Positions 14,971 through 63,971 of a stretch of DNA of 64,000 nucleotides are shown in pieces. The notes below the pieces were generated by a model, which had not been told where the DNA came from, did no database searches, and saw only the letters and a list, made by a program, of their open reading frames with translations. The stretch spans positions 15,811 through 79,810 of IMG/VR virus record IMGVR_UViG_3300047551_002099. One strand, written 5' to 3'. Each line of letters starts with the position of its first letter. The stretch's first letter is position 1. The stretch comes from a virus. The position numbers and the translations under genes are program-made.

Positions 14971-16067
14971 TGGACTTCACAACAATCCAAGAGCGCCCGC
15001 TTTACAGCATGGCTGGATTACCAGTGTCTCCCTTCGCGCAGCGGGTAGGTTATCGTAATCAGACCCGTTACAAGACCGACCGGAACCGAGTCGTGGCTAT
15101 CACGTTAGGGCAGCTTGAATTAAGCCGGCTGCAAGACCAATACCAACAAGGTTATAACAACGGTTTTAATGCAACTGTCGGGCAGTACCGAGATTTGATG
15201 ATAGCCAAAGCAATTGAGGCGTCTTTAGTTAACGTTCAGTTTACTGATATAGACTCTAACAAGTTAACCACTCACGCAGATAAGGTTTGGGGTTACTACA
15301 CTTATGACGAAATCTGGGACTATATCCAACCCGGAGAAGACATAGATTACCCTGCGCTGTGGGCTAGTCTAGGAACCCCTGCTTATTACTTTTACTATGC
15401 AAAGCCTGACCTGGCTGACGGTATTCTTAGCTGCTACGAGCGGTTAATCACTTTCTTCTGGGCTACGTTGGGTATGAGTGCCAAGCGAACACCCAAAGAC
15501 CGGCTCAACCGGCTTATCAATGCAACGGGGCTTAATGACGTCTTTCTAGAACGGCTGTCCTTACTCAACAAGAAAATTGATAAGATAAGCTTCCTGCGCC
15601 GTAATAACATCAGCAAATCAACAGGTCTTAAGGAAGACTTACTGCTCGGGCACTACAGTTCTGATTACTTTGCCGCTTTGCTAGAAGACGCCGACCCCGA
15701 TCTTAAAGACGAGTTTAGTTCTATAACCAAGGCTATTTACTCTATTGCTAAACCTTGTGGTCTTTACTACGTCGCTCAGTTCTTTACTGTAGAAGCCTAC
15801 ATTAGAATTGCCCGTCTACTGGAGTTGGATTCTTATACTGCCCAACTACCACTAAGCCAGTTTGTAGCGTCGCAAGAGTATAGTGCCAAGTCAATCCGGC
15901 TATCTATTGCGGATTGGTTGAGCACTGCTAACGACGCGCATCTAATACTTAATTGGTATACTAATAATGAAGATAAGTTCTTACGCTCTAACCTAATCTT
16001 TTGGCTGGCAGCGCTAGAAGATCAAAAGTTGTCTTACGCTTCAGAGTACCGGTTGACTGATTTTTAG
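14970..16067 (+). CDS. hypothetical protein (baseplate module)
   Basis: 365-aa ORF, TAATG coupling. Confidence 0.6.
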   Translation: MDFTTIQERPLYSMAGLPVSPFAQRVGYRNQTRYKTDRNRVVAITLGQLELSRLQDQYQQGYNNGFNATVGQYRDLMIAKAIEASLVNVQFTDIDSNKLTTHADKVWGYYTYDEIWDYIQPGEDIDYPALWASLGTPAYYFYYAKPDLADGILSCYERLITFFWATLGMSAKRTPKDRLNRLINATGLNDVFLERLSLLNKKIDKISFLRRNNISKSTGLKEDLLLGHYSSDYFAALLEDADPDLKDEFSSITKAIYSIAKPCGLYYVAQFFTVEAYIRIARLLELDSYTAQLPLSQFVASQEYSAKSIRLSIADWLSTANDAHLILNWYTNNEDKFLRSNLIFWLAALEDQKLSYASEYRLTDF

Positions 16068-62295: not shown

Positions 62296-62345
62296 AGTTT
62301 AAACAGCTAAGTGCGTCACCTTAGTACTATGGCACATTTCTTAAG

Positions 62346-62378
62346 AAAAAGTGAAGGGGGTGCATAGTATGCGCCCCC
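62346..62378 (-). terminator. terminator of the tmRNA/tRNA transcript
   Basis: Minus strand GGGGGCGCATA-C-TATGCACCCCC followed by TTCACTTTTT. Confidence 0.65.
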
Positions 62379-62537
62379 GGTGACCTAGTTGGGTAACAAG
62401 GTTAGGTCAGACCCCGTCATTCATACCGCAACAGCGGTACGTTTGAAAGCAACCACTTGGTTGGCATTTGTTGTTTGCTCATCCGAGCAGGCTTCATCGT
62501 AGTGCCATCCTTTACCAATCGAAACCGTTGCATCCCC
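62379..62537 (-). ncRNA. ssrA: tmRNA coding piece (permuted, two-piece type); tag ANQVVAFKRTAVAV*
   Basis: Starts GGGGATGCAACGGTTTCGA, has GAAGCCTGCTCGGATGAGC, and AAACAACAAAT precedes the GCC resume codon. Tag ORF 62465-62421 resembles cyanobacterial ANNIVxFxRxAxAA tags. Downstream pseudoknot TGACCTA/TAGGTCA with GGGT/ACCC. Confidence 0.92.
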
Positions 62538-62538
62538 G

Positions 62539-62573
62539 TGGTACAAGGTACAGGAGTCGAACCTGTCTAAGCG
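62539..62573 (-). pseudogene. 3' half of split tRNA-Ile2(CAU)
   Basis: CGC-TTAG-ACAGG-TTCGACT-CCTGT-ACCTTGT-ACCA. ACCTTGT pairs with the GCAGGGT start at 63304. Confidence 0.8.
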
Positions 62574-62577
62574 GGCG

Positions 62578-62665
62578 TGGGCAAAGCGGGAATCGAACCC
62601 GCGACCTCTGTTAGAGGCTGCCGGCTTATGAGGCCGGTCCTAGAAACCAACGCTAGTCTTTGCCC
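62578..62665 (-). tRNA. atypical tRNA with CAU anticodon and long variable arm
   Basis: GGGCAAA/TTTGCCC-A acceptor, CTAG/CTAG D-stem, CCGGC-CTCATAA-GCCGG anticodon arm, GCCTCT-AAC-AGAGGT variable arm, GCGGG-TTCGATT-CCCGC T-arm. No encoded CCA. Confidence 0.85.
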
Positions 62666-62717
62666 TGGAGACCCGAACCTAGATGTATAATAGAAGTATT
62701 TTAGCTTACTATTTATC

Positions 62718-63272
62718 ATGCAAGAACGAGAAAGGTATTTGAACGGCTATAAACTGGTGCATGCTCCTGACAATTTTTCTATTATGGATAGTGAAAATTG
62801 GTCGGGATGGGTGTATGAGCATAGATACGTAATGGAGCAACATTTAGGTAGAGCTCTGACCTCAGAAGAGGTTGTGCACCACTTGGACGGTAATAAGGAT
62901 AATAACCATATCACTAACTTGATAGTGCTCTCTAAGATAGACCACGGTAAGTTACATCGTTGGATGGATAGTAAGATAATCGTGGATAAACCAGAAACTC
63001 AACCTATTATCGTTGAGTGTGCCCACTGCAAAGCTAAATTTAAAAGACTTAATAAAGACTCTAAATATTGCTCTAATGAGTGTGCTCATTATGCCTCAAG
63101 GAAAGTCGTTAGACCTACTGCGGAGCAGTTAGCCAAATTAATCTGGCAATATCCTATGACTCAGCTTGGAGCTATGCACGGTGTTAGTGATAAGGCTGTT
63201 AAAAAGTGGTGTAAAGCCTACGGTATAACCGAGTTTCCTCCTAAAGGTTACTTTTTACGAAAGCTTGCATGA
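62718..63272 (+). CDS. HNH homing endonuclease (inserted antisense in tRNA-Ile2)
   Basis: VYEHRYVMEQHLGR...VVHHLDGNKDNNHITNL, followed by CxxC...CxxxC and an HTH-like tail. TATAAT at 62686. Stop codon lies on the tRNA anticodon loop. Confidence 0.92.
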   Translation: MQERERYLNGYKLVHAPDNFSIMDSENWSGWVYEHRYVMEQHLGRALTSEEVVHHLDGNKDNNHITNLIVLSKIDHGKLHRWMDSKIIVDKPETQPIIVECAHCKAKFKRLNKDSKYCSNECAHYASRKVVRPTAEQLAKLIWQYPMTQLGAMHGVSDKAVKKWCKAYGITEFPPKGYFLRKLA

Positions 63273-63304
63273 GTTCGCTGCCTTAACCGCTCGGCCAACC
63301 CTGC
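63269..63304 (-). pseudogene. 5' half of split tRNA-Ile2(CAU)
   Basis: GCAGGGTTGGCCGAGCGGTTAAGGCAGCGAACTCAT ends exactly at the CAT anticodon and closely resembles the cyanobacterial tRNA-Ile(CAU) 5' half. Confidence 0.85.
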
Positions 63305-63308
63305 AAGG

Positions 63309-63379
63309 CACCTCCTGAAGGAATCGAACCCTCGTATTCGGTTTTGGAGACCGACGTTCTGCCACTGAACTAAGGAGAT
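63309..63379 (-). tRNA. trnW: tRNA-Trp(CCA)
   Basis: ATCTCCT/AGGAGGT-G acceptor, GTTC/GAAC D-stem, TCGGT-CTCCAAA-ACCGA, GAGGG-TTCGATT-CCTTC. Confidence 0.95.
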
Positions 63380-63380
63380 T

Positions 63381-63410
63381 TGGTGGAGATGGGGAGAGTC
63401 GAACACTCCA
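63381..63410 (-). ncRNA. ssrA: tmRNA acceptor piece, 3' segment (T-loop, acceptor 3' strand, CCA)
   Basis: GTTCGACT-CTCCC-CATCTCC-ACCA. CATCTCC pairs with GGGGATG at 62537-62531, giving the AlaRS G3:U70 pair and A73. Confidence 0.88.
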
Positions 63411-63416
63411 TAGAGT

Positions 63417-63445
63417 TTGACTCTTATACAAGTATAAGCTATCAT
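63417..63445 (+). promoter_or_regulatory. sigma70-type promoter for the second HNH gene
   Basis: TTGACT-N17-TATCAT, 6 nt upstream of ATG 63452 (near-leaderless mRNA). Confidence 0.65.
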
Positions 63446-63451
63446 ATACTT

Positions 63452-63934
63452 ATGAAAAAAGCAAAAGCTGACAAAACCCCAAGAACTTGCTTCACCTGTA
63501 AAGCTGATTTTGTCCCTTCTAGCAACCACAAAAATTGTCCTGTATGCCGTTCTTTAGCAAGAAAGCATTTTTGTGACTGCGGCAAGGAGATATGGGAAAA
63601 GTCTACTAGGTGTTTACGATGCCATAATCTCAATAAAACAGGTAAGTCATTGGGTGTTACTTACCACAAGAGAGGTTATGTCATGCGGAGGGTTCATAAG
63701 GAATATGTTTTTGAACATATTCTTGTTATGGAGCGCCATCTCGGTCGTAAGCTACTAGAAGGTGAAAATGTGCACCACATTAATGGTGTTAAAGACGACA
63801 ACCGTATCGAGAATCTTGAGCTGTGGACTCGACCCCAACCGGCTGGAGTTCGCGCCAAAGATATTCTTAAATGGGCTAGACAAGTTATTGAAACCTATGA
63901 GCCTATAGAACATCTGCTTTCAAGTTCTGAGTAG
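63452..63934 (+). CDS. HNH homing endonuclease with Zn-finger N-terminus (inserted antisense in tmRNA)
   Basis: CxxC repeats, then YVFEHILVMERHLGR...NVHHINGVKDDNRIENL. ATG at 63452 is preferred over the ORF-track start. Confidence 0.92.
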   Translation: MKKAKADKTPRTCFTCKADFVPSSNHKNCPVCRSLARKHFCDCGKEIWEKSTRCLRCHNLNKTGKSLGVTYHKRGYVMRRVHKEYVFEHILVMERHLGRKLLEGENVHHINGVKDDNRIENLELWTRPQPAGVRAKDILKWARQVIETYEPIEHLLSSSE

Positions 63935-63939
63935 CGTTG

Positions 63940-63971
63940 CCGTCTTGGCAACCAGCCGCTACGACTATCCC
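63940..63971 (-). ncRNA. ssrA: tmRNA acceptor piece, 5' segment (helix-2 3' strand plus GAC); true 5' end uncertain
   Basis: TCGTAG pairs with CTACGA and TTGCCAA pairs with TTGGTAA of the coding piece, followed by the conserved GAC and the first GG of the T-stem. Confidence 0.75.

Follow-up and report, generated by a model that had tools for sequence, protein, structure and literature searches.

It is established that permuted tmRNA is matured by tRNA processing enzymes (PMC11915505). Phages also carry two-piece tmRNA genes: 18,146 phage genomes yielded 53 such calls, mostly in aquatic phages (PMC9004378). In GCA-2688965__sp002688965.2, the intervening sequence of a permuted tmRNA gene bears a tRNA-Ala, which was termed a ‘unique feature’ and is the one published precedent for a nested tRNA (PMC11915505). 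The tmRNA T-loop is also a site of group I introns, described in 883 sequences, 36 of which have homing endonuclease genes; LAGLIDADG endonucleases are present in the founding set (PMC11915505).

Here, we analysed a 64,000-nt stretch of DNA, hereafter the window (positions 15,811 to 79,810 of IMG/VR virus record IMGVR_UViG_3300047551_002099), from an uncultured, freshwater, cyanophage-like virus whose terminase is closest to those of Microcystis and Microcoleus phages. We conclude with good confidence that one locus in it is a phage-borne, picocyanobacterial-type two-piece tmRNA gene with nested tRNAs that has been invaded by HNH genes and most probably disabled. The record is a 79.8-kb linear contig with an estimated completeness of 64%, and the tmRNA locus sits at its very end, with 34 nt between the upstream side of the gene and the contig end; the promoter and further context lie beyond the contig. 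A single relative was found in IMG/VR, the 216-kb, 96%-complete viral contig L003, in which an intact tmRNA gene is located amid phage ORFs. Among 50,697 phage records there was no DNA match, near or distant, apart from tRNA-Trp look-alikes, and a scan of JGI metagenomes with the 5′ coding motif likewise gave no match.

A first-pass annotation had proposed that the window tmRNA gene is circularly permuted, and the positions of its pairing ends bear this out. On the minus strand, 843 nt separate the acceptor 3′ end CATCTCC-ACCA, whose last base is 63381, from its partner 5′ end GGGGATG (G1 at 62537), and the acceptor piece comes first. GGGGAUG and CAUCUCC pair at 7/7 positions to form P1, G3-U70 included, and are followed by the discriminator A73 and CCA. 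The acceptor end is not a chance match, because 63381 is the sole site in the 79.8-kb contig at which a GTTCGA T-loop, the CATCTCC strand and ACCA occur together. The coding piece (62344..62537, minus strand) aligns along its length with both RF01851 and RF04321, in agreement with the proposed picocyanobacterial type, and matches L003 at 159/159 nt. It contains, in order, GGGGAUG, GGUUUCGA, the P2 strands, the PK1 region, the tag ORF, downstream helices, a terminal hairpin and a T run. The Rfam alignment places the tag ORF at 62465-62421 on the minus strand, stop codon (62423-62421) included, with the resume codon GCC and the tag ANQVVAFKRTAVAV. The terminal hairpin (62378-62356) and the T run after it put the 3′ end of the gene at the terminator, about 62344 on the minus strand, and not at 62379 as first annotated.

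The acceptor piece is real as well, but only its last ~28 nt abut 63381; the rest (63966-63940) lies past a second HNH gene. The distal segment, part A (63940..63966, minus strand), is 100% identical to L003 3306-3280 and consists of P2b GUCGUAG (63965-63959), P2a UUGCCAA (63951-63945), GAC and the two G residues at the start of the T-stem. These P2 strands are 535 nt away from the segment that bears the acceptor end, and they pair with the coding piece as UUGCCAA/UUGGUAA and GUCGUAG/CUACGAU, at -20.6 kcal/mol by cofolding. When the 40-80 nt directly upstream of 63381 were cofolded with the coding piece, P1 formed and P2 did not. The proximal segment, part B (63381..63409, minus strand; 63404-63381 identical to L003), holds the T-arm remnant GGAG-UGUUCGACU-CUCC, the acceptor strand CAUCUCC and A73-CCA. 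A GT duplication gives its T-loop 9 nt versus the usual 7, the T-stem is left with 4/5 pairs, and the hairpin is predicted at -5.0 kcal/mol versus -7.8 kcal/mol in L003. A canonical T-arm within a continuous acceptor piece is absent from the window, as the stem is cut by 535 nt.

The intact form of this gene is found in L003, where ARAGORN calls a permuted tmRNA (tmRNA*) with the same tag, encoded by sequence identical to that of the window, and RF04321 scores 86.8 bits against a cut-off of 47. The two pieces fold with P1, a canonical T-arm (GGGAG-UUCGACU-CUCCC), P2a and P2b. The intervening segment of 153 nt is made of tRNA-Trp and a 76-nt tRNA(CAU); only 1, 4 and 1 nt are left as spacers. 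The mature tmRNA parts of the window and L003 are identical at 244/244 nt, whereas the flanks are 85-90% identical, a comparison that indicates, at the level of sequence, that the RNA was under constraint before the invasion.

As L003 has a true two-piece tmRNA gene with nested tRNA-Trp and tRNA(CAU), RNase P and 3′ trimming would be the natural route to its products, a route we infer from the maturation of permuted tmRNA (PMC11915505). The intact transcript would read, in order, acceptor piece, 1 nt, tRNA-Trp, 4 nt, tRNA(CAU), 1 nt, coding piece and terminator. RNase P would then cut three times, once at the 5′ end of each tRNA and once at the tmRNA G1, and trimming of 1-4-nt trailers would leave four stable RNAs with hardly any spacer wasted. 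The tmRNA pieces are predicted to be held together by P1 (7 bp, one of them G3-U70) and by P2a/P2b (7 + 7 bp), and would use the SmpB and AlaRS of the host; no smpB was found in either the window record or the L003 record. A promoter scan gave no site upstream of the L003 tmRNA gene. The earlier suggestion that tRNA processing releases all of these RNAs from one precursor thus fits the intact L003 gene; it is not supported for the window copy, in which the acceptor piece is cut by the HNH insertion.

The 843-nt intervening segment of the window had been read as a tRNA operon. The features described within it are present, but the segment is better divided into the 153-nt two-tRNA spacer and a 694-nt HNH cassette. 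Single nucleotides do separate the tmRNA ends from tRNA sequence, as had been claimed, with 63380 (after ACCA) and 62538 (before G1) each adjoining a tRNA. tRNA-Trp(CCA) (63309..63379, minus strand) was called by ARAGORN, scores 63.3 bits with the Rfam tRNA model and matches L003 at 70/71 nt. The nested tRNA(CAU), annotated at first as tRNA-Ile2 but a candidate for either Met or Ile2, is in two halves on the minus strand: the 5′ half (63269..63304; 33/36 nt identical to L003 3177-3142) ends in CTCAT at the anticodon, and the 3′ half (62539..62574; 34/36 nt identical to L003 3137-3102) comprises the variable loop, T-arm, acceptor strand and ACCA. The halves together differ from L003 at 5/72 positions. 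The 5′ half has changes at positions 27-28 that the 3′ half does not compensate, and two pairs of the anticodon stem are disrupted. Between the halves, as delimited by blastn break points against L003, the 694 nt of insert 1 (62575..63268) stand in place of the AAUU that belongs to the anticodon loop and stem. The insert carries an 88-nt tRNA(CAU) with a long variable arm (62665-62578, minus strand; 39.5 bits) and HNH gene 1 (62718-63272, plus strand), an antisense ORF whose stop codon falls within the tRNA(CAU) 5′ half and whose product matches Pfam HNH_3 (9.6e-11) and a PHROG HNH endonuclease. Insert 1 appears to have split the nested tRNA(CAU) after its anticodon while bringing in a different, long-arm tRNA(CAU). 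Both tRNA-Trp and this cassette-borne tRNA(CAU) are intact in the window genome, and the latter may be a replacement for the split one.

Insert 2 (63405..63939, 535 nt), delimited in the same way, replaces GA of the T-stem strand GGGAG. It contains HNH gene 2 (63452-63934, plus strand), which is antisense to the RNA genes and matches Pfam HNH_3 (3.6e-12) and a PHROG HNH endonuclease, together with a promoter-like site on the plus strand (TTGACT-17-TATCAT, 63417-63445); our scan of the window found 4 such sites versus 2.9 expected by chance. The antisense HNH_3 ORFs nearly fill their inserts (483/535 nt in insert 2 and about 550/694 nt in insert 1). The inserts are polymorphic: L003 and runs X4 and X7 lack both at the exact break points, and the insert-free joints, of the T-stem and of the tRNA with AATT, are present in DNA contigs of X4 and X7. 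Conversely, the insert-bearing junctions at 63940 and 62574 recur in contigs from an independent freshwater RNA library. This read-run evidence consists of contigs, which are silent on RNA ends, strand and expression level, and parts that they do not cover are uninformative. Homologues of HNH gene 2 follow tmRNA genes at a distance of 10-43 nt or lie within tRNA clusters, and the best homologue of HNH gene 1 adjoins tRNA-Met(CAT). We suggest that insertion at the DNA level brought in two free-standing, antisense HNH homing-endonuclease genes, insert 2 having probably split the acceptor piece within its T-stem together with the 2-nt GT duplication in the T-loop. That duplication, and the 7% divergence of the split tRNA halves versus 0% for the tmRNA parts, are indirect hints of homing. 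In L003-type DNA, the predicted candidate cleavage sites of HNH 2 and HNH 1 would be in or near GGGAGTTCGA and near CTCATAATTCC.

The expectation that standard gene finders would miss such a gene was correct. Neither ARAGORN nor Rfam makes a tmRNA call in the window, and ARAGORN, whether given the window or the whole contig, returned two tRNAs and no tmRNA. RF04321 scores 41.4 bits (cut-off 47) and RF01851 42.7 bits (cut-off 70), with each alignment taking its T-arm from the long-arm tRNA. Joining the pieces in silico, which the annotation had put forward as a check, did not recover a tmRNA with ARAGORN; this outcome and the sub-threshold Rfam scores with the wrong T-arm go against the first reading for this copy. 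No call was obtained when the annotated acceptor end was fused to the coding piece through a 0-40-nt spacer or in a one-piece form, nor when insert 2, the two inserts together or the entire spacer was deleted at several junctions. The rejoined tRNA(CAU) halves drew only an undetermined ARAGORN call, and ARAGORN in intron mode reported no intron-containing tRNA.

From insert 2 in the T-stem and the GT duplication in the T-loop, we therefore consider the window tmRNA copy likely to be disabled. The window allele might instead still give a working rescue RNA, either as a three-piece tmRNA, in which P1 and P2 would join the coding piece to part A and to a part B that had been cleaved off or transcribed on its own, or as a molecule with a 535-nt arm at the variable-region position. 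Insert 2 does sit between P2 and the T-stem, where tRNAs have their variable region. P2 pairing between part A and the coding piece still amounts to 14 bp (-20.6 kcal/mol), and P1 and the 4-bp GGAG/CUCC hairpin are preserved in part B, so that a three-part assembly is physically conceivable. The insert-bearing variant is viable, because it is present in two freshwater studies. A weak promoter-like site on the minus strand (63458-63431, 9/12) lies just upstream of part B, but such matches are within chance expectation (4 vs 2.9). All tmRNA parts show zero divergence from L003, yet an insertion that happened recently would account for the absence of decay just as well, as a recent tolerated insertion and a recent knock-out look alike. 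Against a working copy stand the 9-nt T-loop in place of 7, the stem with 4/5 pairs, the lack of any processing signal beside part A or at the start of part B, and the rejection of every reconstruction by ARAGORN. We therefore regard continued function as unlikely.

Restoration at the RNA level, with both inserts acting as self-splicing introns, is a reading that has already been largely refuted, and we give it very little credence. The sites do resemble those of known group I introns, which occur in the tmRNA T-arm (PMC11915505) and, in cyanobacteria, in tRNA anticodon loops. Insert 1 lies in such a loop right after a U, but G, not U, precedes insert 2. No group I (RF00028 Intron_gpI) or group II match was found even at E<=10, and the antisense ORFs fill the inserts, leaving no space for a ribozyme core. 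Neither GGGAG-UUCGACU nor the anticodon stem can be regained by any single excision, stem positions 27-28 are incompatible between the tRNA(CAU) halves, and the insert-free form exists as a DNA allele. A contig from the RNA library also crosses 63940 unjoined, a weak point as the library may hold DNA. An artefactual origin, as an assembly chimera or as the attachment-site remnant of a host tmRNA gene left by a prophage, is scarcely credible. It would suit a locus at the extreme end of a linear, 64%-complete contig, and tmRNA genes are common integration sites (PMC4383910). However, the same gene lies inside the 216-kb, 96%-complete viral contig L003 among phage ORFs, two of the four insert junctions were found in the library of an independent study, and the locus has both pieces together with a complete tag ORF. 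The tag and sequence are also far from about 109 picocyanobacterial tmRNAs, with 74-78% identity over 93 nt and no match in the acceptor. Invasion of a phage tmRNA gene by HNH genes at the DNA level thus remains our preferred explanation.

The intact form is highly economical, as the spacer of a permuted tmRNA, which is normally wasted, consists wholly of two tRNAs, and the RNase P cuts that free the nested tRNAs would also create both tmRNA ends. A nested tRNA-Tyr or tRNA-Asn, one in each locus, was found in nine further viral loci (9/118 loci scanned); nesting of tRNAs in permuted tmRNA is therefore not unique. Its presence in the family formed by L003 and the window and in nine other viral loci suggests that it is a recurrent phage solution. 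The invaded allele is in turn a natural experiment, with homing genes inside a tmRNA T-arm and a nested tRNA in the absence of introns. Because intact and invaded alleles coexist in nature, the cost of tmRNA loss to the phage, the targets of the nucleases and how well the tRNA-like domain withstands interruption can be tested. Should the HNH-bearing allele work, the tRNA-like domain would tolerate a break or a large insertion at the variable-region position, and homing genes would be able to colonise a stable RNA without an intron. A practical warning also follows, as invaded genes of this kind escape standard finders.

The gene resembles the picocyanobacterial two-piece tmRNA (RF01851; merged into RF04321, PMC11915505) in that its acceptor piece precedes its coding piece and in its G3-U70, A73 and GGUUUCGA. 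The GAAGCCUGCUCGG motif of the phage coding piece is common to the tmRNA genes of Prochlorococcus, Synechococcus and Cyanobium, and the tag type AN..V.F.R....A. and the terminal hairpin at the gene end are likewise picocyanobacterial. Unlike those genes, it is phage-borne, has 74-78% identity to them over its first 93 nt, encodes its CCA and has a tag ending in AV, whereas the host tag ends in VAA. tRNA genes make up the phage intervening segment, and none of the 109 host genes, which are 309-402 nt long, has any in its own. With OM43 phage Melnitz and the pelagimyophages (PMC9004378), the virus shares a permuted tmRNA in a large aquatic phage that lacks its own smpB. Their tmRNAs are of alphaproteobacterial type, with a riboswitch in Melnitz (PMC9004378), whereas the window gene is cyanobacterial, with tRNAs nested and homing genes inserted.

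As in GCA-2688965__sp002688965.2, a complete tRNA gene lies within the excised segment of a permuted tmRNA; here, however, two tRNAs (Trp and CAU) with 1-4-nt spacers constitute the whole segment, and the gene belongs to a phage. As with the T-loop group I introns, an element with a homing endonuclease gene interrupts the T-arm region of a tmRNA, but the window element has no ribozyme, carries an antisense HNH ORF, occupies the T-stem and leaves a T-loop that excision could not restore. T4-like phages carry free-standing homing endonucleases, among them SegB in the T4 tRNA cluster and the Mob HNH genes. The window HNH genes are like these in their presence or absence between close relatives and in their association with tRNA and tmRNA regions, genes that their homologues abut. 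They are unlike them in that, with a homing role that is predicted, they lie inside RNA genes rather than between them.

The locus is a real permuted phage tmRNA gene with two nested tRNAs that has been invaded by two homing genes, and the invaded tmRNA has probably been inactivated. It lies at the extreme end of a linear IMG/VR contig of 79,810 bp (64% estimated completeness), of which the window is bases 15811-79810. The nearest large terminases are those of Microcystis phages (Ma-LMM01, MaMV type) and a Microcoleus phage, at 33% identity, and the runs holding the viral DNA are freshwater metagenomes; its description as an uncultured, cyanophage-like freshwater virus therefore fits best. The genes neighbouring the locus and all of the RNA genes described here are on the minus strand, and the plus strand carries both HNH genes.

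Read along the minus strand, a GTTCGA T-loop, a CATCTCC strand and an ACCA end (63381) are followed after 1 nt by tRNA-Trp(CCA) (63379-63309; Rfam, 63.3 bits) and, 4 nt later, by the 5′ half of a tRNA, which breaks off at the anticodon CAT (63304-63269). Next come an HNH_3 gene on the opposite strand (HNH 1; 62718-63272), a CAT-anticodon tRNA of 88 nt whose variable arm is long (62665-62578; 39.5 bits), the tRNA 3′ half with its ACCA end (62574-62539), a 1-nt spacer and the tmRNA 5′ end, GGGGATG, at 62537. GGGGATG and CATCTCC pair at 7 of 7 positions, G3-U70 included, and a strand pairing with GGGGATG that falls after a T-loop and before ACCA occurs at only one site in the whole contig. The permuted order, the nested tRNAs and the 1-nt spacers at the tmRNA ends, as described in the first-pass annotation, are thus all present, and the arrangement stands and is not due to chance. 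Joining the pieces in silico, as had been proposed, did not yield a tmRNA: ARAGORN made no call on 40-90 nt upstream of 63381 plus the coding piece in permuted or standard order, and cofolding of these sequences gave the acceptor stem only, with no P2 helix.

From 62537 onward, there is good alignment to Rfam's cyanobacterial model and to its merged permuted model, covering GGUUUCGA, GAAGCCUGCUCGG, the tag frame ANQVVAFKRTAVAV (62465-62421, minus strand; stop codon 62423-62421), the helices that follow, and a terminal hairpin plus T run. The window scores fall below the cut-offs (cyanobacterial model, 42.7 vs 70; merged model RF04321, 41.4 vs 47) because both models fill the acceptor position with the T-arm from the long-arm tRNA. 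The phage tag ends in AV; the picocyanobacterial tags retrieved all have VAA at their end.

One related contig, L003 (216,563 bp, 96% estimated completeness), came out of a motif scan of IMG/VR, and in it the gene is intact. ARAGORN identifies this gene as a permuted tmRNA of 454 nt whose tag is exactly that of the window, and RF04321 scores 86.8 bits against its cut-off of 47. Its 153-nt intervening segment is made up of tRNA-Trp and an unbroken 76-nt tRNA(CAU), the spacers being 1, 4 and 1 nt long; these tRNAs score 65.8 and 54.4 bits on the whole record and are two of its only three tRNA genes. The two tmRNA pieces fold as a textbook tRNA-like domain with P1, a T-arm (GGGAG-UUCGACU-CUCCC), P2a (UUGCCAA with UUGGUAA) and P2b (GUCGUAG with CUACGAU). 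The sole difference in the coding piece is in the terminal hairpin (window 62356-62378, L003 2922-2941), where the window has a loop region 3 nt longer and a C-A mismatch in place of a U-G pair. Since tRNA processing enzymes cleave permuted tmRNA precursors (PMC11915505), RNase P would be expected to cut the intact precursor at the 5′ ends of tRNA-Trp, tRNA(CAU) and tmRNA G1, leaving trailers of 1 nt beyond the encoded CCA of the acceptor piece, 4 nt on tRNA-Trp and 1 nt on tRNA(CAU), such that a single transcript ending at the terminator would yield all four RNAs. No smpB was found in either viral record, so SmpB must come from the host.

Comparison of the window with L003 by blastn gave three collinear blocks (64000-63940 = 3340-3280; 63404-63269 = 3277-3142; 62574-62164 = 3137-2730) with exact break points: 535 nt (63939-63405) stand in place of the T-stem GA of L003, and 694 nt (63268-62575) in place of its AAUU after the tRNA(CAU) anticodon. 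Of the 843 nt first reported for the intervening segment, 694 nt are the cassette; the rest is the two-tRNA spacer of 153 nt with 4 of its nt removed. Owing to the 535-nt replacement, the acceptor piece is in two minus-strand parts: part A (63966-63940), with both P2 strands, and part B (63409-63381), with a damaged T-arm, the acceptor strand and CCA. The T-loop of part B is 9 nt, from a GT duplication. An independent freshwater RNA library contains contigs that match the window exactly and run through junctions 63940 and 62574 unjoined; these confirm the assembly and have no bearing on transcription, as DNA may be present in the library. The last three bases of the 694-nt insert (CGC, 62575-62577), followed by a recipient-type CCG, complement altered positions 27-29 of the tRNA 5′ half (GCG, 63276-63278), and this may be a remnant, left where recombination joined the sequences, of the anticodon stem of a donor allele, or it may be chance.

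Both inserts carry genes for HNH_3 proteins, and these genes behave like free-standing homing endonuclease genes. A promoter scan found a near-consensus promoter-like site 6 bases ahead of the ATG of HNH 2, the gene in the 535-nt insert. In IMG/VR, the genes most similar to HNH 2 are found either within tRNA clusters or 10-43 nt downstream of one-piece tmRNA genes; two on unrelated viral contigs (L125 1070-1953 and L130 1115-1977; 46-51% identity) start 10-43 nt past the tmRNA 3′ end, suggesting a family of nucleases with homing sites beside the T-arm and acceptor end of the tmRNA. For HNH 1, the best-matching homologue adjoins a tRNA-Met(CAT). The cassette tRNA (62578-62665, minus strand) has a CAU anticodon, a long variable arm and G8/A9 in place of U8, and the combination of class II architecture with this anticodon is unusual. 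No tRNA of this type is among the three tRNA matches in the L003 record; four further large viral contigs (L231, L239, L273 and L283) carry long-arm CAU tRNAs, which are 86-88 nt long and share the anticodon arm CCGGC-CUCAUAA-GCCGG with the cassette tRNA.

If the inserts were introns, splicing could restore the RNAs, a reading we rejected as very improbable. The antisense HNH ORFs occupy nearly all of both inserts, the base preceding the 535-nt insert is G, and group I and group II intron models gave no match at the locus even at E<=10. Neither the T-loop nor the anticodon stem is regained by any single excision, the tRNA 5′ half has lost its pairing with the 3′ half at positions 27-28, and ARAGORN rejects every reconstruction. 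Furthermore, contigs from two DNA runs of another study carry insert-free joints, precisely AATT and GA; presence or absence of the inserts is therefore a DNA polymorphism. The same subsurface and soil runs (X4 and X7) hold a more divergent relative, in which the region upstream of part A is joined to the coding piece near 62496 (joint 62496 to 63965) with about 100 unmatched letters between the two sides, and which may have a differently built tmRNA 5′ region.

The mature tmRNA parts and immediate upstream flank are identical to L003 (244/244 nt); identity is 85% in the downstream spacer, 90% in nearby protein-coding DNA, 70/71 nt in tRNA-Trp and 67/72 nt in the split tRNA halves. The tmRNA was strongly constrained until invasion, with no decay so far, and loss of function is therefore not provable by sequence alone. 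The damaged T-arm and the distance now lying between parts A and B make a working tRNA-like domain unlikely. We consider it likely that the window copy is disabled; a tolerated insertion or a three-piece form is unlikely, and splicing very unlikely.

Two-piece tmRNAs are documented in aquatic phages (53 ARAGORN calls in 18,146 phage genomes; PMC9004378), and a 2025 tmRNA database holds 11,946 permuted sequences and 79 phage sequences (PMC11915505). That database describes a tRNA-Ala inside the intervening sequence of a single permuted gene, termed a unique feature, places introns in the T-loop in every case and lists 1152 bp as the longest gene (PMC11915505). No nested tRNA is present in any of about 109 permuted genes retrieved from picocyanobacteria; these genes are 309-402 nt long and encode the tag ANNIVRFSRQAAPVAA or ANKIVSFSRQTAPVAA. 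Over its first 93 nt, the phage gene shares only 74-78% identity with them. A biased motif scan of IMG/VR, with the T-loop set 16-26 nt ahead of the tmRNA 5′ end, gave 118 loci (L296-L413), 9 of which are permuted with one nested tRNA-Tyr or tRNA-Asn. Another 85 of the 118 are permuted without a nested tRNA and, with the T-loop so near the 5′ end, have almost no intervening segment. Permuted phage tmRNA is thus already known, and the variant here is the presence of two nested tRNAs together with two homing-gene invasions.
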